DNA of 64,000 bases from the NCBI RefSeq assembly GCF_030013595.1, contig NZ_CP122768.1. The stretch is one strand, 5' to 3'. Position 1 is the first letter of the stretch; every line of letters starts with the position of its first letter. The position numbers were made by a program, and so were the translations under genes. The notes under the pieces are model-generated. The model searched no databases. It was given only the letters and a program-made list of their open reading frames with translations, and was not told where the DNA came from. Shown here piece after piece: positions 7,785 to 54,844 of the stretch. The DNA is from Escherichia coli. GTDB taxonomy: Bacteria; Pseudomonadota; Gammaproteobacteria; Enterobacterales; Enterobacteriaceae.

Positions 7785-8811
7785 TTATATTTTTTCGATC
7801 TCGACCAGATTAGTGTGCTGCGGGTTTCCCTTCGCCAGTGGTGAAGGGCGCAGAGTGGTTAGCGTATTCACACAGCCGCCATGGTCGATTTTATCGCCAG
7901 ACATATTGGCCTCGTGCCAGGCTCCCTGGCCCATAGCGCTAACCCCAGGGAGAATGCGTGGTGTTACTTTGGCTGGTAGCCGAACTTCGCCACGATGGTT
8001 AAACACCCGCACCATATCGCCGTTGGCAATCCCACGTTTCTGTGCATCTATAGGGTTGATCCACACCTCCTGACGGCAGGCTTCCTTCAGGACATCAATA
8101 TTGCCGTAGGTCGAGTGGGTACGGGATTTGTAATGGAAACCAAACAGTTGCAGTGGGAAGGTTCTACGTTCAGGGGAGTCCCAGCCTTCAAAGGTTGAGG
8201 CATAAACTGGCAGTGGGCTTATCACTTCATCTTTTTCCAGTTCCCAGGTACGGGCAATTTCCGCCAGCTTGCTGGAATAAATTTCAATCTTACCGGAAGG
8301 CGTTTTAAGTGGATTTGCCTCGGGGTCGTCACGAAATGCTTTGTAGGCGACAAAATGACCATTGGGATCTTTACGCTTATAGATACCCATTTTTTTCAGT
8401 TCGTCGTAAGACGGTAACGCCGGATCTTTGGCAAGCATTTTGGCGTACAGATGTTGTAACCATTGTTCCTGCGTGCGACCTTCTGTGAACTTTTGATAGA
8501 CGTCAGGTCCAAGACGTTTCGCGACTTCACTCAGGATCCAGTAAATCGGTTTGCGTTCGAATTTTTCGCTGGTGACTGGCTGAAGGAAAATGAGATATCC
8601 CATGTTACCTGCGTAGTCGTTAGGAATAATATCTTCCTGCTCAACGGTCATCAGGTCTGGCAGCAGAATGTCGGCATATTTTGCCGATGAGGTCATAAAG
8701 TTTTCGATGACCACAATCATTTCGCATTTCGATTCGTCCTGCAGAATTTCATGCGTTTTGTTGATGTCAGAATGCTGATTAACCAGGGTATTTCCCGCGT
8801 AGTTCCAGATG
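7785..8811 (-). pseudogene. ynfE: ynfE 3' fragment (codons after ...KFIWN), separated from its 5' part by the island
   Basis: The translation from NYAGNTLVNQHSDIN to the C-terminus EIEKI is YnfE-like. The N-terminal 49 aa of track ORF 7785..8951 are read-through into island DNA. Confidence 0.9.
8801..8811. repeat. Left copy of 11-bp direct repeat AGTTCCAGATG (att core / target duplication of the island)
   Basis: An identical 11-mer occurs at 18242..18252. Host ynfE sequence continues on the outer side of each copy. Confidence 0.85.
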
Positions 8812-8876: not shown

Positions 8877-10485
8877 ATGACTGACATTAACTATGATAAT
8901 ACTGTATATCCATCCAGCTCTTTCTCTGGGTCTCCCTATCTGTATGGGCAAGTCTACACCTCAAGTCCTGACACAAGGCTGACACAAATCAATCTACTCA
9001 GCGTAGCTAAGCCTCAGTTAGTCCGTAGAGCCAATGGTCGATATACTATCCGCTTCAGACTCAAGGGACAGACCACACCGTTTCTTTCAGTATCGACCCG
9101 AAGCACAGACAGGAGAGTAGCCACAATGCGTCAGAGAGAGCTTGCAGCCACAGCTAAGGCCTTCATGTTGGATAGGCCTGAAGTCTCACTACAGGAGCTT
9201 ACAGAGCATCTCCGGTCTATGGCTGAGCAGTTCCTGACAGACGCTAGTGACGATTACTGGAATGGACTTGAGGTCGCTACTTTGGTGGACGAGAAGTCCA
9301 ACCTGAAGGAGCTAGCCGCTACGCAAGCCTTGAGTCTGGACCAGCAGAAGGGCATAAGGTTAGCGCTTGAAGTCCTGACCGCAGCACAGCAGAGGGTAGA
9401 TACTGGTGATACGTCCAGTCTAATCAAGCTGATTGGTGGTGGCGTAAGCCAGCTTACTGATGGAGATGACAATAACCTTACTAATAACTCAACTATATGC
9501 GACTCTACGTTGATTCTGAGGAACGAGCAGGGGGTCAGCCCGCAAGTATTCACGAGAGAGCGCCAACCATCTGTAGTTTTTTCAAGCCTAGTGTCCTCAC
9601 TGCTGGCTGAGAAGGTCCAGACCCTGAAGTCCTCCAGCTACAAGGACCTGTCGTCCTCACTGAATACCGTCTCTCGGTTTCTGCCTGAAGATATGGACCT
9701 GATGTCCCGCTCTGAGTGGCTGGCAGTGAGGGACGCTATGCTGGCTGCTGAGGTGAGACCATCGACAATCAACAAGCTGCTGACCAAAGCGAAGATGTGT
9801 CTCGATTATGGCCTGATGAATGGGCAACTTGAGGGCCGCAACCCTATTGAACGGATGAAGCTGACCAAGGATACCGACTCCAAGCGCAGAGCGTTCACAG
9901 ACGAGGAGCTGGAGAGACTTCTGGTCCGTGTTGAGGCTGAGTATCAGTTCACACGACACACGGCTCACACGACCTCTGAGGCCCGTAGATGGGCGTCTCT
10001 GGTGTCTGTGGTCACTGGCGCGAGGTCTGCTGAGGTCTGCCACCTGACTAAACGTGACGTTGTAACCTTGGACAATGGACTGGTCTGTATCGACATCAAT
10101 GAAGATGGGGACGGGAAGTCTGTGAAGAACAAACATTCAGTCCGACTTGTGCCGTTAACCGATGGGGCCTGTGGTTTCAGCCTGAAGTCCTTCCTCAAAT
10201 GGGTAGACACTCAGCCTGCTGATGGTCCCCTCTTTGGTATGACTCCGAGTGCCTACTCTAGTTGGTTTAACTCTAGGGTCCTGACTGAGGCCCTAGGAGA
10301 CGCTGAGAACGTTTCTCCACAGTCTGAGACATTGGCTGGCGACCCGAATGAAAGAGCGTGGAGTCAATCTGGTGGACGCTCAAGGCATCTTAGGTCACAG
10401 CAGTCAGTCCATTACGTATGACCTGTACGGGAAAGGACACGCTGTTGGTAGGCTGGCTGAGGTGCTGAAGACAGCTTTACTTTAA
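8877..10485 (+). pseudogene. Tyrosine recombinase (integrase) interrupted by a frameshift; ~535 aa if repaired
   Basis: Frame 1 (8877..10421) carries VTGARSAEV (box I Arg) and KNKHSVRLVPL. The catalytic LHSLRHWLATRMKERGVNLVDAQGILGHSSQSITYDLYGKGH is in the +1 frame and ends at 10485. The shift must lie in 10297..10317, probably the TTT run at 10312-10314. Confidence 0.8.
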
Positions 10486-10581
10486 GTAGGAAGACCCAAG
10501 GTGGAGACCATATACGGCTTGATGGTTGAGACCTTGGGTCACTGAAGTCTGACTGAAGTTAGGGAGGGTGATAATAATCAT

Positions 10582-10604
10582 AATCCCTCCTGACTATAGG
10601 CCCA
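10582..10604 (+). promoter_or_regulatory. Phage single-subunit RNAP promoter look-alike AATCCCTCCTGACTATAGGCCCA
   Basis: A GACTATAGG core resembling the T7 CACTATAGG, directly after the hairpin GGAGGGTGAT..ATCATAATCCCTCC downstream of int. Confidence 0.35.
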
Positions 10605-10645
10605 CTGGTTCGCCTTCGGCTGTCCGACTCTAAGTCTGTCTGTGG

Positions 10646-10777
10646 TCTTATTTAAACTGGTTCCCTAACTCAGGTCCTCCAACTTGGTGTCTTATTTAAA
10701 CTGGTTCCCTAACTCAGGTCCTCCAACTTGGTGTCTTATTTAAACTGGTTCCCTAACTCAGGCCCCTCCAAATTTCG
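10646..10777. repeat. Three tandem 44-bp repeats (TCTTATTTAAACTGGTTCCCTAACTCAGGTCCTCCAACTTGGTG; third copy diverges at its 3' end)
   Basis: Units start at 10646, 10690 and 10734. The first two are identical by eye. Confidence 0.9.
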
Positions 10778-10795
10778 TTGTCTGTCAGCGACTTA

Positions 10796-10818
10796 AATAT
10801 CCCCTCACCTTAGAAGAG
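10796..10818 (+). promoter_or_regulatory. Phage-RNAP-type promoter look-alike ATATCCCCTCACCTTAGAAGAGT (type 1, copy 1)
   Basis: Shares ATAyCCCCTCACywTAG with 11426..11448. Predicted +1 at 10813, followed by GAAGAG as at the SP6 promoter start. Confidence 0.5.
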
Positions 10819-10832
10819 TTTAGGGTTCAGAC

Positions 10833-10855
10833 CCTTAACTATCACCTTAGGAGAG
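10833..10855 (+). promoter_or_regulatory. Phage-RNAP-type promoter look-alike CCTTAACTATCACCTTAGGAGAG (type 2, copy 1)
   Basis: Shares CCCTwAACTATCACywTAGGrGrGA with 11452..11474. Predicted +1 at 10850, 52 nt upstream of the ATG at 10902. Confidence 0.5.
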
Positions 10856-10901
10856 ACGGGCCGTCCTCCACCCAATCAAAACCTTAAGAGGAGGACCATA
10901 C

Positions 10902-11402
10902 ATGGCTATTAAAATTCAGTGCTACACCGAGTCCGACAATGCGGCTTTCTTCGGTGACGATTCCGACCTCCAGCACCAGCTACCAGCACCGACATATGAC
11001 GAACCTAAGGCCCGCACAGGTAAGCCTCCTGTGGTCATCGACAACCGGGCTGTCCGTGCGTGGCTGATTGAGACTGGGTGTCTCTCCTATACGCAGCTTG
11101 TTGAGGCGTACCCGTGGGCTGACGATGTGTTCACAGGACTCTCACGGGCTACCAGTGGCGCTGTCGGTGCTGGACTCCCGGTATCTAAGGCGTACCTGTT
11201 CTCTGCCTTATATGGCACCAACGACATCTTCTCCCGTAACACAGCCAAATCCTACGCTGACATCACTGGGCGTTCACCGTCTCCTCGCTACCTGCGCCAC
11301 GTCAATAGCGTGCTTCAGGCTACGGCTGTGAATCTGGCTAAGGTTCTGAAGGACCGAGGGGATTTCACATGGTGGGATTACAACGATCAGTGCCTGTCCT
11401 GA
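10902..11402 (+). CDS. Hypothetical 166-aa protein, first gene downstream of the tandem promoter-like pair
   Basis: ATG preceded by AAGAGGAGGA. No domain I can recognise. Confidence 0.6.
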   Translation: MAIKIQCYTESDNAAFFGDDSDLQHQLPAPTYDEPKARTGKPPVVIDNRAVRAWLIETGCLSYTQLVEAYPWADDVFTGLSRATSGAVGAGLPVSKAYLFSALYGTNDIFSRNTAKSYADITGRSPSPRYLRHVNSVLQATAVNLAKVLKDRGDFTWWDYNDQCLS

Positions 11403-11425
11403 GAGCCGCGCCAGCTCTGGGCTGG

Positions 11426-11448
11426 AATACCCCCTCACTATAGGGACA
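11426..11448 (+). promoter_or_regulatory. Phage-RNAP-type promoter look-alike AATACCCCCTCACTATAGGGACA (type 1, copy 2)
   Basis: By hand alignment, 18 of 23 positions equal the T3 consensus AATTAACCCTCACTAAAGGGAGA and 16 of 23 equal the T7 consensus TAATACGACTCACTATAGGGAGA. Confidence 0.6.
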
Positions 11449-11451
11449 CCC

Positions 11452-11474
11452 CCTAAACTATCACTATAGGGGGG
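11452..11474 (+). promoter_or_regulatory. Phage-RNAP-type promoter look-alike CCTAAACTATCACTATAGGGGGG (type 2, copy 2)
   Basis: CACTATAGGG core. Its +1 lies 26 bp downstream of that of the previous site, forming a tandem pair like 10796/10833. Confidence 0.55.
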
Positions 11475-11712
11475 ACCAACCTTGCCTCTGCTTCTGATGC
11501 GTCAGAACACGCGAGGTCCTCCCGACATTAAGTATTCTCCTAAGTAATCAAGGCCCGTGACCGCCTCTGACAGACCTCCTGTATCGACCTCCAGCTCGTT
11601 AGCGTTCTTTAGTCGTCTCGGTTAGTAGGTAACCGGCTCATTTAAACCGTCTGGTCTGTTTCCTCCGGCTCTACAAAAATAATGTCCATCATTTTTTAAT
11701 GGACACTATCGT

Positions 11713-12360
11713 ATGAAACACCGGACCTGGATCACTGAAGCTTTACGTCTTCACTTTGAAGAACATTTACCCCGGGTTGTGGCCGGGCGTCGCCTGGGTG
11801 TACCAAAATCAACAGTTTGTAGTATGTTCGTGCGCTTTCGGAGAGCTGGCCTTTCGTGGCCTTTGCCCGCAGGCATGTCGGAGCAGGAACTTGATGCCTG
11901 CCTTTACGGACAATTTTCCACGGTACCAGTCGTACGTCCTGAAAGCACCGTTATATCCGAAGCCCCCGTGGTAAAAAAACGTCCCCGGCGGCCCAACTTC
12001 CCTTATGAGTTTAAAATCGCCTTAGTGGAGCAGTCACTGCAGCCCGGAGCCTGTGTGGCGCAGATCGCCCGGGAAAACGGAATCAACGATAACCTGCTCT
12101 TCAACTGGCGCCATCAATACCGGAAAGGTGGCCTGCTGCCTTCCGGAAAAAATATGCCGGCACTGCTTCCCGTGACGTTAACGCCGGAGCCGGATAATAA
12201 AATCCCGGCCCCCGCACAGGAACCAGAGCAGATAAATACACCGTCCGACAGTCTGTGTTGTGAGCTGGTTCTGCCGGCCGGAACTCTCAGGCTTAAAGGT
12301 AAACTGACGCCGGCGTTATTACAGACACTTATCCGCGAAATAAAAGGGAGCAGCCACTGA
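11713..12360 (+). CDS. tnpA: IS66-family accessory protein TnpA (HTH)
   Basis: 215-aa ORF, first of three. Its stop overlaps the tnpB start (ATGA at 12357-12362). Confidence 0.8.
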   Translation: MKHRTWITEALRLHFEEHLPRVVAGRRLGVPKSTVCSMFVRFRRAGLSWPLPAGMSEQELDACLYGQFSTVPVVRPESTVISEAPVVKKRPRRPNFPYEFKIALVEQSLQPGACVAQIARENGINDNLLFNWRHQYRKGGLLPSGKNMPALLPVTLTPEPDNKIPAPAQEPEQINTPSDSLCCELVLPAGTLRLKGKLTPALLQTLIREIKGSSH

Positions 12361-12707
12361 TGATATCTCTCCCTGCAGGTTCGCGTATCTGGCTGGTTGC
12401 AGGTATCACCGATATGCGAAATGGCTTTAACGGCCTGGCATCAAAAGTTCAGAACGTCCTGAAGGATGACCCGTTCTCCGGACACCTGTTCATCTTCCGC
12501 GGACGCCGGGGTGACCAGATAAAAGTGTTGTGGGCTGACAGTGACGGACTGTGCCTCTTCACCAAACGCCTGGAGCGGGGCCGCTTCGTCTGGCCAGTCA
12601 CCCGTGACGGCAAGGTGCACCTTACTCCGGCTCAGTTATCCATGCTTCTTGAAGGTATCAACTGGAAGCACCCGAAACGAACGGAACGCGCTGGAATCCG
12701 CATATAA
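12360..12707 (+). CDS. tnpB: IS66-family TnpB (Orf2)
   Basis: 115 aa, MISLPAGSRIWLVAGITDMRNGFNGLA..., typical IS66 Orf2. Confidence 0.88.
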   Translation: MISLPAGSRIWLVAGITDMRNGFNGLASKVQNVLKDDPFSGHLFIFRGRRGDQIKVLWADSDGLCLFTKRLERGRFVWPVTRDGKVHLTPAQLSMLLEGINWKHPKRTERAGIRI

Positions 12708-12726
12708 CCCGTTGTAAAGTGAGGAT

Positions 12727-14298
12727 ATGGACACCTCACTTGCTCATGAGAACGCCCGCCTGCGGGCACTGTTGCAGACGCAACAGGACACCATCCGCCA
12801 GATGGCTGAATACAACCGCCTGCTCTCACAGCGGGTGGCGGCTTATGCTTCCGAAATCAACCGGCTGAAGGCGCTGGTTGCGAAACTGCAACGTATGCAG
12901 TTCGGTAAAAGCTCAGAAAAACTTCGTGCAAAAACCGAACGGCAGATACAGGAAGCACAGGAGCGAATCAGCGCACTTCAGGAAGAAATGGCGGAAACGC
13001 TGGGTGAGCAATATGACCCGGTACTGCCATCCGCCCTGCGCCAGTCTTCAGCCCGTAAACCGTTACCGGCCTCACTTCCCCGTGAAACCCGGGTTATCCG
13101 GCCGGAAGAGGAATGCTGTCCTGCCTGTGGTGGTGAACTCAGTTCTCTGGGATGTGATGTGTCAGAGCAACTGGAGCTTATCAGCAGCGCCTTTAAGGTT
13201 ATCGAAACACAACGTCCGAAACAGGCCTGTTGCCGGTGCGACCATATCGTACAGGCACCAGTACCTTCAAAACCCATTGCACGCAGTTATGCCGGAGCGG
13301 GGCTTCTGGCCCATGTTGTCACCGGGAAATATGCAGACCATCTGCCGTTATACCGCCAGTCAGAAATATACCGTCGTCAGGGAGTGGAGCTGAGCCGTGC
13401 CACACTGGGGCGCTGGACAGGTGCTGTTGCTGAACTGCTGGAGCCGCTGTATGACGTCCTGCGCCAGTATGTGCTGATGCCCGGTAAAGTCCATGCTGAT
13501 GATATCCCCGTCCCGGTCCAGGAGCCGGGCAGCGGTAAAACCCGGACAGCCCGGCTGTGGGTCTACGTCCGTGATGACCGTAACGCCGGTTCACAGATGC
13601 CCCCGGCGGTCTGGTTCGCGTACAGTCCGGACCGGAAAGGTATCCATCCACAAAATCACCTGGCCGGTTACAGCGGTGTGCTTCAGGCCGATGCTTACGG
13701 TGGTTACCGGGCGTTATACGAATCCGGCAGAATAACGGAAGCCGCGTGTATGGCTCATGCCCGGAGAAAAATCCACGATGTGCATGCAAGAGCGCCCACC
13801 TACATCACCACGGAAGCCCTGCAGCGTATCGGTGAACTGTATGCCATCGAGGCAGAGGTCCGGGGCTGTTCAGCAGAACAGCGTCTGGCGGCAAGAAAAG
13901 CCAGAGCCGCGCCACTGATGCAGTCACTGTATGACTGGATACAGCAACAGATGAAAACACTGTCGCGTCACTCAGATACGGCAAAAGCGTTCGCATACCT
14001 GCTGAAACAGTGGGATGCACTGAACGTGTACTGCAGTAATGGCTGGGTGGAAATCGACAACAACATCGCAGAGAACGCCTTACGGGGAGTGGCCGTAGGC
14101 CGGAAAAACTGGATGTTCGCGGGTTCCGACAGCGGTGGTGAACATGCGGCGGTGTTGTACTCGCTGATCGGCACATGCCGTCTGAACAATGTGGAGCCAG
14201 AAAAGTGGCTGCGTTACGTCATTGAACATATCCAGGACTGGCCGGCAAACCGGGTACGCGATCTGTTGCCCTGGAAAGTTGATCTGAGCTCTCAGTAA
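12727..14298 (+). CDS. tnpC: IS66-family DDE transposase TnpC
   Basis: 523 aa with N-terminal leucine-zipper-like region, CxxC zinc motif ([12 protein letters not shown]) and DDE core, typical of IS66 transposases. Confidence 0.9.
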
Positions 14299-14582
14299 AT
14301 ATCAATACGGTTCTGACGAGTCGCTTACGTTAGTAGCTCGTCTACTCACTACATTGGCTTAAGTCTATCACCGCTCACCATCTGGAGTCCTTACAGCTCG
14401 TCCTGACATGCGGTCTCACCTTATATGCACATGGAGAACATGGCCACTCCAGACCAACACTAATCAACATTAACCCTATTCACTTTCGTTAAGCATTTTT
14501 TGGTGGGTCCGTTTGGATGCATTGAATAGGTGCGGACTCCACGTGGAGACAGAAAGTGCTTTACTAAAGGAGCATCCTTTAT

Positions 14583-14972
14583 ATGACTATTAAATCCATC
14601 GTTATCAACGGTAAGACCATCCTGTCTACACCTAACGCCATCAATGAGGGTGTCTGGTTCGACATGCTTGAGGTCCATCAAGCTGCTGGCTTGCCTGCTA
14701 ACAAGACGTTCTCACAGTGGCGCAGCCGACAGTCTCGTGCATTAGAAGAGGCTGGAGAGGTGTCGTTTGACAGTGTACAGAAGACCCTGTGTGGCAGCTT
14801 TGTGGCAGTGCTGGCCTACCTTATGTGGGCGGACCTTACTCTCTGGCTGGCGGTGGTTCGTTACGTTGCGTCTGAGACTATCGGCGTCCTGCCTGACCGC
14901 TTCAAGTCTATCGACGGTGATAACCCCGAGTTAGAAATGTCAGAGGATAACAGCGAGTGGGAGGACTTCTAA
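14583..14972 (+). CDS. KilA-N-like domain protein (129 aa) with acidic C-terminal tail ending ...SEDNSEWEDF
   Basis: SD TAAAGGAG. The N-terminus is paralogous to the next ORF (both have GLPA[NS]K..S[QE]W). See finding on the tail. Confidence 0.6.
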   Translation: MTIKSIVINGKTILSTPNAINEGVWFDMLEVHQAAGLPANKTFSQWRSRQSRALEEAGEVSFDSVQKTLCGSFVAVLAYLMWADLTLWLAVVRYVASETIGVLPDRFKSIDGDNPELEMSEDNSEWEDF

Positions 14973-14973
14973 G

Positions 14974-15714
14974 ATGACCATGAGCCAGCTTGAAGCATTA
15001 CCTATCGTCATCGAGGGTCATTCATTCATCTGCAACGACCAGCGCATGTGGAACCTGAACGAGATTCACCGAGTGTTAGGTCTTCCAGCAAGCAAGATGC
15101 CGTCTGAGTGGAATAACAAGATTCGCACACAACTTGACCGCTCCGGAAATTTCCGGACCGTGAATGGTGACGGCGGTGGTACATGGGCGACCGAGGCTGG
15201 GACCGTGGCTTATGCTATGTGGGTCTCTACAGATTTCTACCTGATGGTCATCAATGCTTTCATCTTTATGCGTAACGACGCAATCGTCCGAGAGCGTGTA
15301 GCGGTCAAACAGGCTGACGAGGCTAACGCTAACCTCTCCATCGCAGCACCTAAGGCAGACATCTTTGACGGTCGTCTGACCAATGGTGGCTCTGTTCCGT
15401 GGAACTGGGCGTGTAAATCTTTGGGTCTTGCCCCGATGAAACTGAAAGAGGGCTTGAAGCGCTCCGGTAAGTTCGTCCAGAAGTGGAACCCTGACAGTTA
15501 CGCCGACGAGCTTCGACCTCAGGAGAAGGCGTTCAGTATTGGACTATTCGTCACTAAGTCAGTCATGGGTAAAGACACATGGCAGGTGACAGCTAAAGGC
15601 TACGCATGGATGCAGGGGAACGCCCAGAAGTGGAGAGAGCTAATAGCTGATGGTGACCGCTTAAAGGCTGCTGAGCGTCGAGCACAGAAGCGTCTTAACC
15701 GTGGAGGTAAGTAG
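14974..15714 (+). CDS. KilA-N N-terminal / ANT-like C-terminal (antirepressor-type) DNA-binding protein, 246 aa
   Basis: N-terminal pattern IEGHSF..MWNLNEIHRVLGLPASK..GGGTWATEAGTVAYAMWVS fits KilA-N. The C-terminal LGLAPMKLKEGLKRSGKF...QVTAKGYAWM fits the ANT C-terminal pattern as I remember it. Starts 1 nt after the previous stop. Confidence 0.6.
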   Translation: MTMSQLEALPIVIEGHSFICNDQRMWNLNEIHRVLGLPASKMPSEWNNKIRTQLDRSGNFRTVNGDGGGTWATEAGTVAYAMWVSTDFYLMVINAFIFMRNDAIVRERVAVKQADEANANLSIAAPKADIFDGRLTNGGSVPWNWACKSLGLAPMKLKEGLKRSGKFVQKWNPDSYADELRPQEKAFSIGLFVTKSVMGKDTWQVTAKGYAWMQGNAQKWRELIADGDRLKAAERRAQKRLNRGGK

Positions 15715-15716
15715 TC

Positions 15717-15941
15717 ATGGCTATGATTGACCCTCGTACACCTATCGGCAAAGCGACCCTTCGTTACCGTGGTCTGCCTACACGTCATCTGCTGTCCCTG
15801 CTGAGACTTGGAGTCGAAGACCCCGAACGCCCGTACTACAGTCGAGACGAGCTAATAGCTATGTTGGTGGACCGTGATTTAGACAATCAGTTACGCCGAG
15901 CCTTTGCGAAGTCTAGCGCAGCTAGGGAACTGGAGTCCTGA
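15717..15941 (+). CDS. Hypothetical 74-aa protein
   Basis: ATG 2 nt after the previous stop, SD GGAGGTAAG. No recognisable domain. Confidence 0.5.
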   Translation: MAMIDPRTPIGKATLRYRGLPTRHLLSLLRLGVEDPERPYYSRDELIAMLVDRDLDNQLRRAFAKSSAARELES

Positions 15942-16146: not shown

Positions 16147-16638
16147 ATGTTATTCAACAACAACGACTGGAAACTATCAGTCACCGACATCAATCCCTAT
16201 GAAAATACTGTGAGTCTGGACGGTCAGTCCTATCCGCTGTCTCTGGCGATTAAGACCCTGATTCCGGGCTACCTGTCAGGCTTACCGTCCACCAGCCGCG
16301 AGGCGATGGAGTTACTGGAAGCTCTGGCTGAAGCTGGCGTGTCCATTGGCAACTTCTTCAGTAATGACCTGATGACCGCCTATGGTCGCCGCCAGCAGAA
16401 CAAGCGAGCCGAAGCTGAGCGTATTGCTAAAGAGCAGCGCATTCAGGCTGAGCGTATGCGTGAAGAGAACATGACTGATGCAGAGTGGCAGAAAGAGCTA
16501 CAGCGCCGTGAACAGGTCAAAGCTGAACGCCGGACCTATGGTGAGCACCTCCGCAGTGCTACCCATTCCGCTGGGCGCTCCCGTGCTTCTATGGTCGCTG
16601 ACATTGAGTCCACGGACAACTGGATGGACAGCCTCTAA
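16147..16638 (+). CDS. Scaffold-like coiled-coil protein (163 aa)
   Basis: SD AGGAG. The charged heptad-like stretch RRQQNKRAEAERIAKEQRIQAERMREENMTDAEWQKELQRREQVKAERR sits immediately upstream of the capsid-like gene. Function is inferred from position and composition only. Confidence 0.4.
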   Translation: MLFNNNDWKLSVTDINPYENTVSLDGQSYPLSLAIKTLIPGYLSGLPSTSREAMELLEALAEAGVSIGNFFSNDLMTAYGRRQQNKRAEAERIAKEQRIQAERMREENMTDAEWQKELQRREQVKAERRTYGEHLRSATHSAGRSRASMVADIESTDNWMDSL

Positions 16639-17700: not shown

Positions 17701-17844
17701 GACCAATGGGTAAGAGGTAAGTCTGGACTGAATATCAGCAGGACTTCAGGTGGTGGCCTGTCACTGTGATTAACTAACTACGGTCTGGACCAATGGTCTG
17801 GGCCTTATTACTGGTATGGTAGTATACAGGCGAAGGAGGACCCA

Positions 17845-18000
17845 ATGTCTATGACTTCCGCAGACCTAAGGTCCCTCCTGACTCTGGTCTATAAACTCGT
17901 GTTCCTCTCTGTGGGTCTCTACATGGTTCTCTCTGGTCGACTCGGTGTGGATGTGTTCGACACTCTGTCTAAGGCTGTGGGTGGACTTCTAGGTCCTTAG
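17845..18000 (+). CDS. 51-aa hydrophobic peptide (one or two TM segments)
   Basis: Not in the ORF track (<60 aa). ATG at 17845 preceded by GAAGGAGGA. MSMTSADLRSLLTLVYKLVFLSVGLYMVLSGRLGVDVFDTLSKAVGGLLGP. Confidence 0.45.
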   Translation: MSMTSADLRSLLTLVYKLVFLSVGLYMVLSGRLGVDVFDTLSKAVGGLLGP

Positions 18001-18241
18001 GTTTGGACTCACAGTGGGACCGATGATTTCTGACAGAAAAATGTGAATGACCATCTAATACATTAAGCCAGCAGACTTCCCCCCATAGTCCCGCCTCAAG
18101 TCCAGACCGAGGCCACCGGGGGTCCTGACCAGCCGTCTAGACATCCCGTCTAATGACACAAGTCTGGCACAAAGCCTGACACAAAGTCCTTGACTCAATG
18201 CAGGACCTCAGGCCTACTAAGGGTCCGCTTCAAGTCCTTGA

Positions 18242-18252
18242 AGTTCCAGATG
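18242..18252. repeat. Right copy of 11-bp direct repeat AGTTCCAGATG
   Basis: Identical to 8801..8811. Confidence 0.85.
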
Positions 18253-19652
18253 AACTTAATGGGCACATCCAGTTTATCTTTGCCGCGGACGCCGTCGCGG
18301 ATTGCCGTCATTTGCGGGCCATGATCGATAGCATCCGTCCAGCTGAAGCAGGAGATTGACGTTTTGACCGGATTATCCAGCACCGGTAGGCGTTCTATGG
18401 TAATGGTATAGGTCGATTCACGCGCGCCACTATTCCCGCCGCTGATGCCGACATTGCCCGTCAAAATAGGCAACATAGCAATAGCGCGTGCGGTCAGCTC
18501 ACCGTTTGCCTGGCGTTGCGGCCCCCAGCCCTGGCAGATATAAGCGGGTTTTGCTGTGCCAATTTCACGCGCCAGTTTGATGATACGGTCCACCGGGATA
18601 CCGGTAATTTGCGAAGCCCACTGCGGCGTTTTCGCTGTTTTATCGTCACCTTCACCAAGAATATAGGCTTTATAGTGACCATTTTTTGGTGCATCTGCGG
18701 GTAAGGTTTTTTCGTCATAGCCGACGCAGTATTTATCAAGAAAAGGTTGATCAACGAGATTTTCGTTAATCAATACCCAGGCAATACCCGCAACCAGCGC
18801 GGCATCGGTGCCCGGGCGAATAGGAAGCCATTCGTCTTCACGACCGGCAGCCGTATCGGTATATCGCGGATCGATAACAATCATTTTTGCGTTCGATTTC
18901 TCGCGCGCTTTTTCAAGAAGATAAGTGATGCCACCACCGCTCATGCGGGTTTCTGCCGGGTTGTTACCAAACATCACGACCAGCTTGCTGTTTTCAATAT
19001 CCGTGGTGCTGTTGCCATCATTACTGCCGTAGGTGTAGGGCATGGCACAGGAAATTTGCGCGGTGCTGTAGGAGCCATACTGGTTGAGTGAGCCGCCGTA
19101 GCAGTTCATCAGGCGTTTGACCGCCGAGGCGGATGGCGAAGAGCGGGTCATATTGCCGCCAACAATCCCCGAAGAGTACTGAATATATACAGCCTCATTG
19201 TCATATTGTTCGACGGTTTTTTTCAGGCTACTGGCGATAGTATCCAGGGCTTCATCCCAGCTAATCCGTTCGAATTTGCCTTCGCCGCGTTTGCCCACGC
19301 GTTTCATTGGGTAATTCAAGCGGTCGGGATGATTAATACGCCGACGGATGGAGCGACCGCGCAAACAGGCGCGTACTTGATGATTGCCATACTCATCGCT
19401 GCCGGTGTTGTCAGTTTCCACCCAGGTCACTTCATTATCTTTAACATGCAGACGAAGTGCACAGCGGCTACCACAGTTGACGGAACAGGCACCCCAGACC
19501 ACTTTCTCGCTGGCCTGTTGTACTGCTGCCGCTGCACTGCGCAGGGTGAACGGTAAAGAAAAACCGCCTGCAGCCAGCGCCAGAGAACCTATCGCGGTAG
19601 ATTTAACGAGTGTTCTGCGGCTGATGCCCACCATTTGTTCATTTTTGGACAT
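18242..19652 (-). pseudogene. ynfE: ynfE 5' fragment (Tat signal through ...KLDVPIKFIWN)
   Basis: MSKNEQMVGISRRTLVKSTAIGSLALAAGG..., DmsA/YnfF paralogue. Track ORF 18195..19652 ends with 16 island-encoded residues. Confidence 0.9.
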
Positions 19653-25011: not shown

Positions 25012-25831
25012 ATTAATTTTTCATTGCTTCGTTATGGGGCATGGTTGGGGCAAACTCGCTTAACTGTGTATTTAACAAAGCTACCTGTGCATTATTGTTT
25101 TCAGACATCCATTTTCCGTATACCTGAAATACCATTTGCGCATCTGCATGGCCCATCTGGTTTGCTATAAATGCCGGGTTAGCACCAGCTGTCAGCGACC
25201 AGCAGGCATAAGTATGTCTCGACTGATATGATTTTCGATGGCGGAGTCCGGCACGTTTTATCGCTGCGTCCCACATCTGCCTTATTGAGTCAACGGTAAA
25301 ATGGTCACCATAATTTTTTACTCTCGCTGACACTTCAGGTTGAAAAACAAAGGTGCATTTATGTTTTTCTGTTCTGCCATACTCTCTGAGGTGAACATCA
25401 ATGATATGCTCTTTGCTCAGTCTCGTTAATGTCATCTGACTCCGGAGAGCGTCGATTGCTGGCTTAATAAGATGAATGACCCGATTGGTTCCCGCCTGTG
25501 TTTTTGGTACCGTGAAACGGTCTTTTGCTAAATTTCTCCTGATCATCATTGTTCCATTTTTCAGATCTATGTCCTCCCATCCAAGTGCACACAGCTCACC
25601 AGGGCGAACGCCAGTATAAACAGAAACACACCATAAATTTTTGGCTTGCTGATTTCTGCACGCATCGATAAGACGGATGAATTCCTCCCGCGAAAGAGGA
25701 TCCGGAATGGTTCTTGATTCCTTTAATGGCGAGATCCCCTTAAACGGGTTATCTGCCAGGTAACCGTTATCAACACCAAACTGGAACACGGCGTTAAGAT
25801 TGTAAGCGACTCGTCAGAACCGTATTGATAT

Positions 25832-27403
25832 TTACTGAGAGCTCAGATCAACTTTCCAGGGCAACAGATCGCGTACCCGGTTTGCCGGCCAGTCCTGGAT
25901 ATGTTCAATGACGTAACGCAGCCACTTTTCTGGCTCCACATTGTTCAGACGGCATGTGCCGATCAGCGAGTACAACACCGCCGCATGTTCACCACCGCTG
26001 TCGGAACCCGCGAACATCCAGTTTTTCCGGCCTACGGCCACTCCCCGTAAGGCGTTCTCTGCGATGTTGTTGTCGATTTCCACCCAGCCATTACTGCAGT
26101 ACACGTTCAGTGCATCCCACTGTTTCAGCAGGTATGCGAACGCTTTTGCCGTATCTGAGTGACGCGACAGTGTTTTCATCTGTTGCTGTATCCAGTCATA
26201 CAGTGACTGCATCAGTGGCGCGGCTCTGGCTTTTCTTGCCGCCAGACGCTGTTCTGCTGAACAGCCCCGGACCTCTGCCTCGATGGCATACAGTTCACCG
26301 ATACGCTGCAGGGCTTCCGTGGTGATGTAGGTGGGCGCTCTTGCATGCACATCGTGGATTTTTCTCCGGGCATGAGCCATACACGCGGCTTCCGTTATTC
26401 TGCCGGATTCGTATAACGCCCGGTAACCACCGTAAGCATCGGCCTGAAGCACACCGCTGTAACCGGCCAGGTGATTTTGTGGATGGATACCTTTCCGGTC
26501 CGGACTGTACGCGAACCAGACCGCCGGGGGCATCTGTGAACCGGCGTTACGGTCATCACGGACGTAGACCCACAGCCGGGCTGTCCGGGTTTTACCGCTG
26601 CCCGGCTCCTGGACCGGGACGGGGATATCATCAGCATGGACTTTACCGGGCATCAGCACATACTGGCGCAGGACGTCATACAGCGGCTCCAGCAGTTCAG
26701 CAACAGCACCTGTCCAGCGCCCCAGTGTGGCACGGCTCAGCTCCACTCCCTGACGACGGTATATTTCTGACTGGCGGTATAACGGCAGATGGTCTGCATA
26801 TTTCCCGGTGACAACATGGGCCAGAAGCCCCGCTCCGGCATAACTGCGTGCAATGGGTTTTGAAGGTACTGGTGCCTGTACGATATGGTCGCACCGGCAA
26901 CAGGCCTGTTTCGGACGTTGTGTTTCGATAACCTTAAAGGCGCTGCTGATAAGCTCCAGTTGCTCTGACACATCACATCCCAGAGAACTGAGTTCACCAC
27001 CACAGGCAGGACAGCATTCCTCTTCCGGCCGGATAACCCGGGTTTCACGGGGAAGTGAGGCCGGTAACGGTTTACGGGCTGAAGACTGGCGCAGGGCGGA
27101 TGGCAGTACCGGGTCATATTGCTCACCCAGCGTTTCCGCCATTTCTTCCTGAAGTGCGCTGATTCGCTCCTGTGCTTCCTGTATCTGCCGTTCGGTTTTT
27201 GCACGAAGTTTTTCTGAGCTTTTACCGAACTGCATACGTTGCAGTTTCGCAACCAGCGCCTTCAGCCGGTTGATTTCGGAAGCATAAGCCGCCACCCGCT
27301 GTGAGAGCAGGCGGTTGTATTCAGCCATCTGGCGGATGGTGTCCTGTTGCGTCTGCAACAGTGCCCGCAGGCGGGCGTTCTCATGAGCAAGTGAGGTGTC
27401 CAT
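25832..27403 (-). CDS. tnpC: IS66-family DDE transposase TnpC (copy 2)
   Basis: 523 aa, identical to 12727..14298. Confidence 0.9.
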
Positions 27404-27422
27404 ATCCTCACTTTACAACGGG

Positions 27423-27770
27423 TTATATGCGGATTCCAGCGCGTTCCGTTCGTTTCGGGTGCTTCCAGTTGATACCTTCAAGAAGCATGGATAACTGAGC
27501 CGGAGTAAGGTGCACCTTGCCGTCACGGGTGACTGGCCAGACGAAGCGGCCCCGCTCCAGGCGTTTGGTGAAGAGGCACAGTCCGTCACTGTCAGCCCAC
27601 AACACTTTTATCTGGTCACCCCGGCGTCCGCGGAAGATGAACAGGTGTCCGGAGAACGGGTCATCCTTCAGGACGTTCTGAACTTTTGATGCCAGGCCGT
27701 TAAAGCCATTTCGCATATCGGTGATACCTGCAACCAGCCAGATACGCGAACCTGCAGGGAGAGATATCAT
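27423..27770 (-). CDS. tnpB: IS66-family TnpB (copy 2)
   Basis: 115 aa, identical to 12360..12707. Confidence 0.88.
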   Translation of the reverse strand: MISLPAGSRIWLVAGITDMRNGFNGLASKVQNVLKDDPFSGHLFIFRGRRGDQIKVLWADSDGLCLFTKRLERGRFVWPVTRDGKVHLTPAQLSMLLEGINWKHPKRTERAGIRI

Positions 27771-28417
27771 CAGTGGCTGCTCCCTTTTATTTCGCGGATA
27801 AGTGTCTGTAATAACGCCGGCGTCAGTTTACCTTTAAGCCTGAGAGTTCCGGCCGGCAGAACCAGCTCACAACACAGACTGTCGGACGGTGTATTTATCT
27901 GCTCTGGTTCCTGTGCGGGGGCCGGGATTTTATTATCCGGCTCCGGCGTTAACGTCACGGGAAGCAGTGCCGGCATATTTTTTCCGGAAGGCAGCAGGCC
28001 ACCTTTCCGGTATTGATGGCGCCAGTTGAAGAGCAGGTTATCGTTGATTCCGTTTTCCCGGGCGATCTGCGCCACACAGGCTCCGGGCTGCAGTGACTGC
28101 TCCACTAAGGCGATTTTAAACTCATAAGGGAAGTTGGGCCGCCGGGGACGTTTTTTTACCACGGGGGCTTCGGATATAACGGTGCTTTCAGGACGTACGA
28201 CTGGTACCGTGGAAAATTGTCCGTAAAGGCAGGCATCAAGTTCCTGCTCCGACATGCCTGCGGGCAAAGGCCACGAAAGGCCAGCTCTCCGAAAGCGCAC
28301 GAACATACTACAAACTGTTGATTTTGGTACACCCAGGCGACGCCCGGCCACAACCCGGGGTAAATGTTCTTCAAAGTGAAGACGTAAAGCTTCAGTGATC
28401 CAGGTCCGGTGTTTCAT
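27770..28417 (-). CDS. tnpA: IS66-family TnpA (copy 2)
   Basis: 215 aa, identical to 11713..12360. Confidence 0.8.
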   Translation of the reverse strand: MKHRTWITEALRLHFEEHLPRVVAGRRLGVPKSTVCSMFVRFRRAGLSWPLPAGMSEQELDACLYGQFSTVPVVRPESTVISEAPVVKKRPRRPNFPYEFKIALVEQSLQPGACVAQIARENGINDNLLFNWRHQYRKGGLLPSGKNMPALLPVTLTPEPDNKIPAPAQEPEQINTPSDSLCCELVLPAGTLRLKGKLTPALLQTLIREIKGSSH

Positions 28418-29035
28418 ACGATAGTGTCCATTAAAAAATGATGGACATTATTTTTGTAGAGCCGGAGGAAACAGACCAGACGGTTTAAATGAGCCGGTTA
28501 CTTAAGATTTGTCATGTAATTATTTACAGTTACAGCCGATCTACCTGGTTGTGTAACAATATAGTTACTTTTGGGGCTCTGGTATCCAGTCAGTAGCTCT
28601 TTACGAACCTCCAGTAATTTTTCTTTATTAATCGATGAGGCAAGATTTTTTTCACCGATTATGCTCAGGATATTTTTGATGACGGCACGGTATGTGTTGA
28701 GTGATGTTTTTGCGACTTCAGTTTCTTTCAGTGCCAGAAATTTTTCAGCCAGTTCTTTTATGGTTAAATCTTGTCGGGTCTCACCAAATTTTTCCAGATT
28801 GCGTGAGGAGGGAAACTGTTTTGCATAGTCGAAAACACCAGTTTTTATTGCGTAACAAACAGAGGCGCGTAGCTCACCTGCAACGCGCCTGTTTTTTGCT
28901 GTGTCAGGAACCCCCAGGTTTTCCCTGACTCTTACGCCTTTATAAACAAACCAGATACGTAATTTCCCTCCATGGTTTTCCACGCCTGTCGGATATTTCA
29001 TTTCAACTTCTCTCATTAGTTAGTGTGGCTTTTAG

Positions 29036-29359: not shown

Positions 29360-31831
29360 TTAAGAATCAGCCTGACTCGGGATCAGTTTTTGCCAGATAA
29401 CTGAAACGTATTTTGCTTGGTAACGGGCGTCATCAAGTGCATTATGGCGCTCACCTTCGAATGGAATAGCCGTTCTGGCATCGAAATCTATGGCTTTCCC
29501 CAGCTCAACGATTGTGCGTACATCGCGATCGTTGTAGTAACGCCACGGGCAGGGGATCCCCTGCCGTTCGTATGAACGGCGCAAAATCGTGTTGTCGAAG
29601 TTGGCTCCATTTCCCCAAACCTGAACAAAAAATTCACCGGAGTTTTCGTCGATAAATTCCCGCAATTGTAACAGTGCATCATCTAACGGGATTTCATCGG
29701 TCATAATGGCAGATTGTGCTTCGCGTGATTGCTTAAGCCACCATTTAATGGTGTCCCGATCAATGACTCCGCCAGCAGTTTCCAGATCGATAGTCTTACT
29801 AAATTCCGGTCCTATATCTCCGGTTTGCGGATCGAAAAATATTGCACCTATTGAGATGATCGGTGCATCAGGATTTTTTCCCATGGTTTCAAGGTCGATC
29901 ATTAGATGGTCACACGTCCTGCTGGTGGATGTGATTTTGTGATGACCGTTCACCTTAATTGAGTGATCTGCCGTCTCGCCAGTTTCATTATCGCTATTGT
30001 GATGCTGATTGCCGCCAGTGTTCTCCTTGTGTGGATGTTCAGCGCCTTCCATTTCCTCCGGATCATCTTCCTGAACTTCAACCTGATACTCTTCATCGAA
30101 TGTTTCTTGGTATGTTGCGTCGCCCATCACCGCGCCACAATCAGGGCAGTTGCCGCCGCCGGTCTGACCGCAGGCGGTGCAGACTTTTTCCACTTCCTGT
30201 TGCGCCACTGGTTCAGGCTGTTTCGTTTCTGGCTCGTTTTGTAACGCATTTGGGCTGTTTTGTTCCGCTTTTTGGTAGTTCCGTTCCGATTCATGCTGGT
30301 TCTGGTTCACAGAATCGCGGGTCTGGATCCCCTTAACCCATTTCGGATCATTCGGGTCACTAATCCCTTCAACAAATTCACCATGTGATGCAGCAAGCAA
30401 CTTATCGGCGTCAGGCTGGCTGATATTGGCTGCCTGCATAATTTTGTTTACTTCGTCAGCGGTAACTTTTATCGGCTCTGGTTGTTCTGAATCTTCAGCG
30501 GTATCTACATTTTGCGGTAAGCCCGTGTATGTGCCATTTTTTCGGGCAAAATATTCTTCTTTTGTGATTTCAGTGGCGCCAGCAGCCAGTGCCTTATCTA
30601 GACCAGAAAGTTTGTTTGCGCGACCGTATTTTTCTCCGTCCTTATCTGCGAAGAGGAAATAGAACGGCCCCTCACGCTCTACAGATGGTTCAGCTTCCGG
30701 CGCGGTTTCATTTTTTGGGATATCAGATACCTCAGTTTCCACTGCATCAGTTTGTGTTTCTGATGACTGGAGAACATCAACAGTGCCCAGGTCTGTTTCT
30801 TCATTCTCAAACACGCCCTTTGTCGTCAGGTATTCGCAGATATATTTGTTCAGTGCTACGGGATCTTTGTGAATGTCGATCGGACGCTCACGGACAAGGC
30901 CAAAAATAGTTTGGCGGTCGTAGCGAAGGGCATCAGGCTGTTTGCGCATTGATGCCGAGATACGCTTCCAGTCTTCGCGGTCGTTGTCGATAACTTCTTT
31001 TTTTGCCCAGCGATGGATGCTGCCGTCAATGTTTCCGGCATCCACATCACCAGGCCAGAGAGCGTAGGCCAGTTCGTCATCCAGTGTTTTCCATGTCTGC
31101 TTGTATTCGCGATGAATGGCAGCAATGACCGGGCTGATTTTTCCTGTTGAATTTTCAGTGTACTGTTGATTGGCTCTGGCGCGGGCGAGATCAACAACAG
31201 ACGTGTATTTTCCGGTTTCCTTGCGTTCACCTTCGCGACGTTTTTTCCAGATGCGCATCTCTGCCTGAATTTCGGGCCATTTAGCACCAGGAATACATTT
31301 ATGCTTAACCCACCCAATGGCGTGCAACTTAAGCTCCGGATACATGGCGTTAACTTCTGGCATTTTCATCAACGCTTCAACGATATGTCCGTCGAATGTT
31401 GCCATGTCTTCCTGCAACAATTCCTGTGCGCTAATAACCATATCAACGGTGATGTTTTCACATGTGTCGAACTTAACCATGACAGCGTTCTGTACTTCAG
31501 GGGCCAGCTTGTCAAAAGTGACGTTCATCGGATCGGATTCAGTCTCAACCGGGACAAAAGAAGCAGACTCCTCATCCCAGCGGTTTTCCTGCATATATTC
31601 AGCATCCCATGAATCGAGGGCAGGGCGGGGTATGCCAGGTTTATCCTCGCAGACAATAAATTTATAAGCGCAGTCCTGAGCAGCCGGATAATGTTCCAGG
31701 AACTGCCAGTGAAATTTTGCTCGAGCACGGCGTTCGTCGCCAGCTTCAATGGCTGTGGCTACAGCCACAGCGCCTTCTTCCCTTGTTGCCAGTTCGTCAG
31801 GAATAGCGGCGCAAATAAAGACTTTACTCAT
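29360..31831 (-). CDS. ydfE: Full-length YdfE-like protein with C-terminal DEDD-type 3'-5' exonuclease domain (823 aa)
   Basis: The N-terminus MSKVFICAAIPDELATREEG matches the K-12 Qin YdfE fragment. Zinc ribbon CTACGQTGGGNCPDCG. C-terminus MIDLETMG...GNGANFDNTIL...HNALDDARY is DnaQ-like. Confidence 0.75.
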   Translation of the reverse strand: MSKVFICAAIPDELATREEGAVAVATAIEAGDERRARAKFHWQFLEHYPAAQDCAYKFIVCEDKPGIPRPALDSWDAEYMQENRWDEESASFVPVETESDPMNVTFDKLAPEVQNAVMVKFDTCENITVDMVISAQELLQEDMATFDGHIVEALMKMPEVNAMYPELKLHAIGWVKHKCIPGAKWPEIQAEMRIWKKRREGERKETGKYTSVVDLARARANQQYTENSTGKISPVIAAIHREYKQTWKTLDDELAYALWPGDVDAGNIDGSIHRWAKKEVIDNDREDWKRISASMRKQPDALRYDRQTIFGLVRERPIDIHKDPVALNKYICEYLTTKGVFENEETDLGTVDVLQSSETQTDAVETEVSDIPKNETAPEAEPSVEREGPFYFLFADKDGEKYGRANKLSGLDKALAAGATEITKEEYFARKNGTYTGLPQNVDTAEDSEQPEPIKVTADEVNKIMQAANISQPDADKLLAASHGEFVEGISDPNDPKWVKGIQTRDSVNQNQHESERNYQKAEQNSPNALQNEPETKQPEPVAQQEVEKVCTACGQTGGGNCPDCGAVMGDATYQETFDEEYQVEVQEDDPEEMEGAEHPHKENTGGNQHHNSDNETGETADHSIKVNGHHKITSTSRTCDHLMIDLETMGKNPDAPIISIGAIFFDPQTGDIGPEFSKTIDLETAGGVIDRDTIKWWLKQSREAQSAIMTDEIPLDDALLQLREFIDENSGEFFVQVWGNGANFDNTILRRSYERQGIPCPWRYYNDRDVRTIVELGKAIDFDARTAIPFEGERHNALDDARYQAKYVSVIWQKLIPSQADS

Positions 31832-51117: not shown

Positions 51118-51143
<26 letters not shown>
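50598..51143 (+). CDS. nu1: Terminase small subunit Nu1
   Basis: MEVNKKQLADIFGASIRTIQNWQEQGMPVLRGGGKGNEVLYDSAAVIKWYAERDAEIENEKLRRE, near-identical to lambda. Confidence 0.95.

Positions 51144-54824
<3,681 letters not shown>

Positions 54825-54844
<20 letters not shown>

Follow-up and report, generated by a model that had tools for sequence, protein, structure and literature searches.

Several described systems resemble parts of the element considered here. The capsid-forming phage-inducible chromosomal islands (cf-PICIs, e.g. EcCI2) exceed it in size, depend on temperate siphovirus helpers and have a complete set of genes for head formation and packaging, with portal, protease, connectors and terminase. 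Among eukaryotic viruses, the genes of virophages such as Sputnik and mavirus carry the late promoter motif of their giant-virus helper and are expressed by the helper's transcription apparatus. For T7 itself, Chung and Hinkle are said to have reported in 1990 that a T7 promoter/origin together with the T7 concatemer junction suffices for packaging of a plasmid by the phage. The T7 family comprises the textbook strictly lytic phages, which are also workhorses of phage therapy, K1F-like phages being used against E. coli K1. No satellite of T7-like phages, of Kayfunavirus or of Studiervirinae, nor any island with phage-polymerase promoters, was found described among 8 million papers and preprints, subscription-only literature lying outside that search. 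Here we analyse a stretch of 64,000 nucleotides from Escherichia coli (contig NZ_CP122768.1, assembly GCF_030013595.1), referred to as the window, in which the gene ynfE is interrupted by an island of ~6.7 kb (not counting an inserted insertion sequence, IS). Comparison with E. coli PSJ-12 (NZ_AP027622), whose intact island occupies 565176-571790, shows that the island consists of an integrase and five hypothetical genes. An earlier note on this DNA had drawn attention to two tandem pairs of T7/T3/SP6-like promoter sequences within it.

We consider it probable that these sites are promoters of Kayfunavirus polymerases, located on an element that behaves like a phage satellite. The general features of satellites are present: an integrase (frameshifted in this copy), att sites, a small size and the lack of a full phage gene set. 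The promoters appear to be one of several borrowed helper signals, since they stand beside a copy of the phage packaging junction, and the island also has a capsid gene of its own; these two elements make the satellite reading far stronger than the earlier note could reach. A more specific proposal is that the island belongs to the first enterobacterial satellite family of virulent T7-like phages. Such a family would be silent until a helper polymerase appears, would use stacked promoter specificities (K1F and GW1, with CR8 in a distant relative), and would possess its own small HK97-fold shell and a junction that becomes functional only once excision joins its ends. We regard the case for and against this fuller proposal as evenly balanced.

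Promoter pairs and the polymerases they match

The four main sites reported earlier, at 10796, 10833, 11426 and 11452, are all present on the + strand (Table 1). Their start-to-start distances are indeed 37 nt in pair 1 and 26 nt in pair 2, and 52 nt separate the +1 of the 10833 site (position 10850 in T7 numbering) from the ATG at 10902. The whole window was scanned on both strands with two position weight matrices, made from 22 and 22 promoters of four Kayfunavirus genomes. The sites at 11452, 11426 and 10833 scored 30.3, 26.5 and 24.9 bits, respectively; they alone reached 20 bits or more, and nothing else scored above 10 bits. Mononucleotide-shuffled windows gave 1-5 matches at 8 bits or more, and the number of matches at 20 bits or more expected by chance was calculated to be ~0.1 or fewer. 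Two further suggestions of the earlier note did not survive the scan. Its fifth site at 10582, which coincides with one arm (the right) of a hairpin and the adjoining flank, scored -38 and -41 bits. The degenerate TCACCTT motifs around 14425 and 16121 remained below 8 bits. By score, neither the fifth site nor these motifs are promoters.

The sequence CACTATAGGGA is the T7 promoter core that is also used in vectors, and a cloning-vector artefact, or a match arising by chance, therefore had to be considered. The real scores far exceed those of the shuffles, the comparison on which the earlier note had made its proposal depend. The -17 to -8 blocks of the sites are not those of T7, T3 or SP6, and the promoter region is matched in 142 of 5426 complete E. 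coli genomes (~2.6%), always in the chromosome. The vector artefact, which the same note had named as a possible refutation, is thereby ruled out, and the probability of this whole class of explanation is negligible.

Pair 2 was compared with 50,697 phage records and matched 218 genomes, nearly all of them T7-like Kayfunavirus of 38-41 kb, including K1F, EcoDS1, CR44b, PE3-1 and phiYIO1-1, with 4-6 matching places per genome. In EcoDS1, CR44b and PE3-1 these places carry the annotation 'promoter'. Eleven annotated phage-polymerase promoters of EcoDS1 have CCTAAACTATCACTATAGGGA in common, including the -12 to -8 block ACTAT, and the promoter 5' of its gene 4 reads CCTAAACTATCACCTTAGGGATG. The 11452 site is identical at 19 of 19 positions to several promoters of EcoDS1 and phiYIO1-1, while AACTATCACCTTAGG of the 10833 site is found in the promoter before phage gene 4 (EcoDS1 11111-11125; phiYIO1-1 10202-10216). 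Judged by these identities, the downstream (type-2) members of both pairs are Kayfunavirus promoters of the K1F/EcoDS1 class, and the odd CACCTTAGG core of pair 1 is a natural phage variant. The type-2 sites, this variant included, are identical over 19-20 nt to annotated promoters of EcoDS1, K1F, CR44b and PE3-1; the difference is that the latter sit in phages, whereas the island copies sit in a bacterial chromosome on an element without a polymerase gene. K1F-class sites in the phages score 30.9-37.2 bits, against the 30.3 and 24.9 bits of the two island sites, and the counterpart in a related island, L001, is identical to the phi10 promoter (35.6 bits).

The upstream (type-1) sites match a smaller set of phages, including Ro103C3lw, whose host is E. 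coli O103, and GW1, both of them Kayfunavirus. All promoters of these two phages read ..TTAAACCCTCACTATAGG.. (the class being written ..ACCCTCACTATAGG), with the consensus ATTAAACCCTCACTATAGGGA and the -11 to -8 block CCCT. Identity of the 11426 site with GW1 36004-36019 and Ro103C3lw 25463-25478 is complete (16/16). Its score lies below the 28.8-37.1 bits of GW1-class phage sites: it is identical to them from -11 to +5 and has C in place of A at -12/-13. Exact GW1-class matches, scoring 31.8-33.9 bits, are present in sister islands. The polymerases of EcoDS1/phiYIO1-1 and of Ro103C3lw/GW1 are 88% identical and differ within the specificity loop (TRLNLMFLGSFNLQPT vs TRLDLMFLGTFRLQPT), where the positions equivalent to T7 N748 and R756 are N and N in the K1F class and D and R in the GW1 class. 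In T7 and T3 these are the residues that recognise the promoter from -11 to -8, the first of them being D in T3. As far as sequence comparison can tell, the genus Kayfunavirus holds two polymerase specificities, and each island pair consists of one promoter of each. Since the polymerase classes differ at the N748/R756 positions, the two sites of a pair most likely serve separate helper polymerases and are not duplicates for one.

These assignments modify what had been proposed on the helper. The specificity blocks of the island had been given as CCCCT and CTATC and described as unlike those of T7, T3 and SP6. The -12 to -8 blocks, ACTAT and CCCCT, are indeed not those families' own, this block being CGACT in T7 and GTGAC in SP6; the type-1 sites share CCCT with T3. 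A specific unknown helper had also been postulated, and this can be replaced by known Kayfunavirus of the K1F/EcoDS1 and GW1/Ro103C3lw classes. The observation that the element encodes no phage RNA polymerase was borne out: tblastn of the entire window with Kayfunavirus gp1 gave nothing below E = 0.09. The same was true of gp4, gp5, gp8, gp9, gp10, gp18 and gp19, and no homologue of the Kayfunavirus polymerase, primase-helicase, DNA polymerase, portal, scaffold, capsid or terminase was detected in the island. Sigma-70-like promoters are not enriched in it (4 found vs 5.9 expected). The comparative evidence supports the view that single-subunit RNA polymerases of phages use these sites as genuine promoters. 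Because the element that carries them encodes no such polymerase, expression of the island is most likely wired to a helper phage, as the earlier note had suggested, with the amendment that the helper is not an unknown one.

Both pairs are intergenic, on the coding strand and directly 5' of open reading frames (ORFs) with strong ribosome-binding sites. The primary origin of T7 is a tandem promoter pair, phi1.1A/1.1B, which raises the question whether the island pairs act mainly as T7-type replication origins, or deliver polymerase to a pause site, gene expression being secondary. The tandem arrangement and the long conserved untranslated leader are compatible with such a role, as is a ATCTGTAT motif that would follow the promoters on their own strand once the island is circular. 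Against it stand the location of both pairs immediately before these ORFs, pair 2 preceding the structural genes, and the finding of no AT-rich origin-like tract 3' of the promoters in the window sequence. We consider an origin as the principal function clearly unlikely; both roles could nevertheless coexist.

Conservation of the promoters in related islands

The related loci, 75 in number and drawn from genomes and metagenomes, come from E. coli, Shigella, Citrobacter, Leclercia, Buttiauxella and Enterobacter, that is, from at least six enterobacterial genera. Strict T7-group core sites in them are strongly biased to the strand of the capsid gene (138, against 2 on the opposite strand). Islands covering the region have two promoter positions, each occupied by a K1F-class site or a close variant, often with a site of the second class 5' of it. 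We found 30 tandem pairs in 21 of the 75 loci. Every one of them ends in a K1F-class site and the order is never reversed; the upstream partner is canonical GW1-class (CCCT block) in 23 pairs and has a variant block (..CCT or CACT) in the other 7. In 24 pairs the two sites start 25-29 nt apart, in the remaining 6 the distance is 36-37 nt. In L026-L028 (e.g. position 2450 of L027) the upstream partner is AATAAGCACTCACTATAGGGGAC, whose -12 to -8 block GCACT is closer to the CGACT of T7; partners of this type may represent a third helper specificity in the family.

More distant relatives retain this architecture with other promoters. In L084, which also lies in ynfE and whose capsid protein is 42% identical, TTAAGGAAGGTACACTATAGGGAGAGACAC is the phi10 promoter of Citrobacter phage CR8 (Caroctavirus), a phage with eleven sites of this type, and a different core is located 33 nt further 5'. 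In the same island (L084 3009-5321) an IS66-family insertion lies beside the promoters, with promoter-bearing sequence duplicated on both of its sides. L086, with a capsid protein 33% identical, has AAACCCCGACTATAGAGAG-type sites, for which no match exists in the phage collection. This co-variation of promoter class with the putative helper is the strongest argument for regarding the sites as functional inputs.

The same comparison bears on the possibility that the island is the decayed remnant of an integrated T7-like phage, or that its promoters are functionless products of chance recombination. Short exact matches to phage DNA and the visible decay of the window copy could be read in this way. 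Yet coding similarity to Kayfunavirus is zero anywhere in the window, a compact gene order with intact ORFs is common to all six named genera, and the promoters have been kept in position, strand and order while their flanks diverged. Such an origin is, in our opinion, very improbable.

A putative split packaging junction and the capsid-like protein

Beyond promoters, the island contains two non-adjacent segments of the phage concatemer junction. The left half is non-coding and collinear with four Kayfunavirus genomes. It corresponds to the final ~33 nt of the unique sequence at the right end and, joined to them, the initial ~70 nt of the terminal repeat, in the pattern CGATGA..TG..AAAA.T.TGA..CCATCTAATAC..CCCCCATAG.CC..AGTCCAGACC. 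Blocks common to island and phages, equally spaced in both, are CGATGAGTTTTG, AAAA.T.TGAG, CCATCT.A.A, CCCCATAG.CC and AGTCCAGACCAAAGG, and there are 69-77 identities over ~97 positions with the four phages (z 7.6-20.9 against shuffles). The right half copies the right boundary of the terminal repeat, which in the phages ends between GAGTCTCT and ATCTGTAT and is annotated in EcoDS1 as 'concatemeric junction', together with the ATCTGT pause/termination motif. Its 16-mer GTCTCCCTATCTGTAT is unique in the window, with 0 occurrences expected, and the repeat-end/pause motif is kept in every island lineage, even where the integrase is another one. T7 concatemers are processed only if the polymerase pauses at the ATCTGTT signal of the junction. 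While the island is integrated, its whole length separates the two halves; excision would bring them to either side of attP, ~325 nt apart. At the sequence level, both halves of a helper packaging signal thus appear to be carried by the island.

A third phage-like segment is the hairpin 5' of the 44-bp repeats (Table 1). It is identical at 32 of 32 positions to phiYIO1-1 40046-40077 (minus strand) and at 22 of 24 to EcoDS1 38634-38657 (plus strand), and its predicted fold has an energy of -7.3 kcal/mol (z -2.5). The loop of the hairpin is flipped between these two closely related phage genomes, which suggests an inversion within the palindrome.

The 331-aa protein encoded near the right end of the island had no match to phage gp10, PDB sequences, Pfam or PHROGs at the sequence level. 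Its assignment to the HK97 fold is based on a second AlphaFold model, built after a deep profile search and compared with known structures; in this predicted model the spine helix, the A and P domains and the E-loop are all found. A first model, from 14 close sequences, was poor (predicted local distance difference test score, pLDDT, 48) and was not relied on, although its Foldseek matches already pointed to HK97 shells. Directly 5' of the capsid gene, in all loci, lies a 163-aa ORF, which from its position is possibly a scaffolding protein. Short nucleotide matches inside phage gene 9 prompted us to consider it as a relative of the scaffold gp9; no protein similarity was found, and this relationship was rejected.

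We infer that the island is transcribed by the helper polymerase, excised, replicated, packaged and transferred. An infecting helper would make its gene 1 polymerase, which would find the island promoters in the chromosome. Pair 1, with its weak CACCTTAG cores, would drive the 166-aa ORF as an early product. Transcription from the consensus cores of pair 2 would cover the leader and the accessory genes as well as the genes of the possible scaffold and of the HK97-fold capsid protein, and would run on through the junction. With a GW1-class (CCCT) promoter 25-37 nt 5' of a K1F-class (CTAT) one, either helper polymerase specificity would switch the element on. The half with the left cut at the right end of the island and the half with the repeat end and ATCTGT pause at its left end would be contiguous only after excision or in tandem copies. 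The helper terminase would then cut and package the excised island, possibly into small shells of the island's own capsid protein. The packaged molecule would end between CCA and TCTAATAC (~18053) and between CCCT and ATCTGTAT (~8936), with a terminal repeat spanning attP.

Several observations weigh against this scenario. By score alone the 10796 site (8.0 bits) is at chance level, and it owes its inclusion solely to its position 37 nt 5' of a strong site, a placement seen again in five sister loci. The C at -12/-13 of the 11426 site occurs in no sampled phage promoter. An exact search of IMG/VR for ACCCCCTCACTATAGGG, the type-1 variant of the window, returned two unrelated single matches and no phage reusing the block; one match, in a 6760-bp contig that was promising by size, proved to be an AT-rich phage fragment. 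The junction halves would enclose, attP included, more DNA (~325 nt) than the 178-191 nt of the phage terminal repeat, and one lineage has the pause motif ~500 nt inside the integrase gene. Encapsulins are among the top structural matches of the 331-aa protein, which on the predicted model could conceivably form a non-virion shell, and no homology of the putative 163-aa scaffold was detectable in Pfam, PHROGs or gp9. Finally, no excised, circular or virion-derived copy of the island was found in IMG/VR or among metagenome contigs, a result that is not decisive. In IMG/VR, the capsid gene matched sequences that had been called in the manner of prophages in isolate genomes and do not stem from viromes. 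Numerous metagenome contigs with this gene are 6.2-6.9 kb long and were considered as free genomes; none has a terminal overlap, and those aligning to the reference island have a few tens of bases of ynfE on both sides and are integrated copies at assembly breakpoints.

The lack of a packaged form is also what would be expected of a non-transferring defence island triggered by phage infection, in which the promoters are infection sensors for toxic or interfering genes and the capsid-like protein poisons or misdirects helper head assembly. Sister islands, among them L016 (5833-6492), L010 and L013, carry the anti-T7 defence gene PD-T7-4 (E 1e-102), located directly after the integrase gene and overlapping it; its presence also connects the family with T7-family phages, in line with the satellite reading. 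This gene was recovered in a selection for T7 resistance, and according to its authors frequently overlaps an integrase gene (PMC9519451). The variable module of the window island encodes a KilA-N/ANT-like protein, and SaPIbov5 Ccm, a protein that redirects capsid size, likewise has the HK97 fold. On the other hand, PD-T7-4 lies 5' of the phage-type promoters and is consequently outside their control, and the conserved junction halves around attP in every lineage would be left unexplained. Known satellites as a rule both interfere with their helper and are transferred, which makes defence more a part of the satellite reading than a competitor of it. We find an exclusively defensive island rather doubtful.

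The remaining features of the island are listed in Table 1. The ynfE halves occupy 7785-~8810 and ~18253-19652. The number of 44-bp repeats varies from 1 to 6 copies across sister islands, and they are absent from the lineage with another integrase; possible counterparts in T7-like phages are the arrays of short repeats located next to the terminal repeat on its inner side. The 166-aa ORF has no match in Pfam, PHROG or PADLOC, and its homologues occur solely in related islands. Downstream of pair 2, the leader is long and untranslated, and the pairing of its stem-loop (~11483-11520) is kept via compensatory changes across islands; an Rfam scan gave nothing credible in the island. In the accessory module the 246-aa ORF matches Pfam KilA-N (1.7e-5) and PHROG anti-repressor families, and in L001 the position of this module is filled by other genes. 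The 51-aa ORF is placed as gene 19.5 is in the phages, where that gene precedes the terminal repeat, and in the other lineage a different short hydrophobic ORF is found there.

Table 1. Coordinates of the island features in the window
Feature	Position	Strand	Remarks
attL, 11-bp att core AGTTCCAGATG	8801..8811		same 11-mer at 18242-18252
Tyrosine integrase pseudogene	8877..10485	+	PHROG 1 integrase, E 6e-24
Right junction half GTCTCCCTATCTGTAT	8930..8945	+	within 5' end of integrase gene
Hairpin GGGAGGG-TGATAATAATCATAAT-CCCTCC and flank	10562..10598	+	in Kayfunavirus between promoter phiOR and gene 19.5
Three tandem 44-bp repeats	10645..10776	+	between hairpin and pair 1
Pair 1, upstream member	10796..10818	+	AATATCCCCTCACCTTAGAAGAG; weak/degenerate GW1-class site, CACCTTAG core; inferred +1 = 10813
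Pair 1, downstream member	10833..10855	+	CCTTAACTATCACCTTAGGAGAG; K1F/EcoDS1-class promoter, CACCTTAGG variant; inferred +1 = 10850
166-aa ORF	10902..11402	+	strong ribosome-binding site; ATG preceded by AAGAGGAGGA
Pair 2, upstream member	11426..11448	+	AATACCCCCTCACTATAGGGACA; putative GW1/Ro103C3lw-class promoter (CCCTCACTATAGGGAC); inferred +1 = 11443
Pair 2, downstream member	11452..11474	+	CCTAAACTATCACTATAGGGGGG; consensus K1F/EcoDS1-class promoter; inferred +1 = 11469
Conserved transcribed leader with 5' stem-loop	11469..11628, continues 14329-14582	+	alignment and compensatory pairs
IS66-family insertion, 2700 bp	11629..14328	+	8-bp target duplication; foreign to the element; absent from L001
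Variable accessory module: 129-aa ORF, 246-aa KilA-N/ANT-like ORF, 74-aa ORF	14583..15941	+	Pfam, PHROG
163-aa ORF, charged helical middle	16147..16638	+	directly 5' of capsid gene in all loci
HK97-fold major-capsid-like protein, 331 aa	16705..17700	+	predicted structure
Terminator-like stem-loop, then TTATT	17782..17804	+	3' of capsid gene
Small hydrophobic 51-aa ORF	17845..18000	+	strong ribosome-binding site; directly 5' of junction copy
Left half of phage concatemer junction	18019..18123	+	non-coding; collinear with four Kayfunavirus genomes
attR, att core copy	18242..18252		repeat of 8801-8811

The copy of the island in the window is a decayed member of the family. Compared with the intact 535-aa gene of L001, a 2-nt deletion near 10314 shifts the catalytic C-terminus of the integrase (HSLRHW...ITYDLY) out of frame, and the IS66-family element is inserted ~160 nt 3' of pair 2, within the leader. 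The integrase frameshift and this insertion have probably disabled the copy. An identical inverted copy of the IS66-family element is present at 25802-28501, where it splits the integrase of a lambdoid prophage (25013-29016, - strand) into an arm-binding domain (28498-29016) and a catalytic part (25013-25789). The same IS has thus probably disabled two mobile elements within 64 kb. A lambda-like prophage extends over ~29000-64000 of the window and encodes the terminase gpA (51118-53043), a portal of the lambda family (53243-54844) and a tape measure protein (60946-63525), as well as a protein of 823 aa that contains a 3'-5' exonuclease domain of Rv2179c-like type (29360-31831).

Implications and comparison with known systems

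If the satellite reading is true, regulation of a satellite would be possible by simply copying the promoters of the helper polymerase, and stacking of promoter specificities would widen the usable range of helpers. Division of a packaging site by attP would prevent it from acting as long as the element stays in the chromosome, and a capsid gene with one partner gene may suffice to steal the rest of a podovirus virion. PD-T7-4, an orphan defence gene, would gain the genomic context of a mobile element. Helper-satellite pairs would become predictable from sequence, by matching the promoter class to the specificity loop of the polymerase. In phage therapy, a reduced yield of phage or the dissemination of genes through K1F-type lysates could result from elements of this kind.

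Compared with cf-PICIs, the island has just a capsid gene and one possible scaffold gene in ~6.7 kb. Of the cf-PICI gene set (capsid, portal, protease or scaffold, connectors and terminase) only the capsid fold was found in it, its other ORFs having no structural matches in Pfam or PHROG, and it appears to borrow the polymerase and the packaging junction of a virulent podovirus. Hallmarks of P4-like satellites and classical PICIs (primase/replicase, psu/sid/delta, repressor-AlpA-terS) were likewise not found among its Pfam and PHROG families. In its proposed design, the island resembles P4 with its helper P2, a small integrative satellite whose late genes are switched on by helper transcription machinery and which yields small capsids. 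However, P4 relies on helper activator proteins acting on the host polymerase, whereas here the helper's own RNA polymerase is proposed to act on copied promoters. P4 replicates by means of a primase that it encodes and takes its capsid protein from the helper, while in the island no replication gene was found and the capsid protein is its own.

The PLE of Vibrio, which respond to phage ICP1, and the PICMIs are small chromosomal islands answering infection by lytic phages, as is proposed here, but they differ from the island in host, helper family and gene content. PICMIs are described as lacking a capsid gene, which the island has, and the papers found on PLE and PICMI mention no T7-like helper or phage-polymerase promoters. 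Virophages, although they share the use of helper promoter motifs, are eukaryotic, have unrelated proteins and lack tandem promoters of two specificities.

The laboratory T7 transducing plasmids are a parallel in the sense that the island carries natural counterparts of both types of signal, promoter and junction. In contrast to these plasmids, it occurs naturally in the chromosome together with an integrase gene, has a capsid gene of its own and carries the junction in two parts separated by attP. What appears to be new with respect to known satellites is the helper family, the copied and stacked polymerase promoters, the junction divided across attP and a head module reduced to a capsid gene and one partner.

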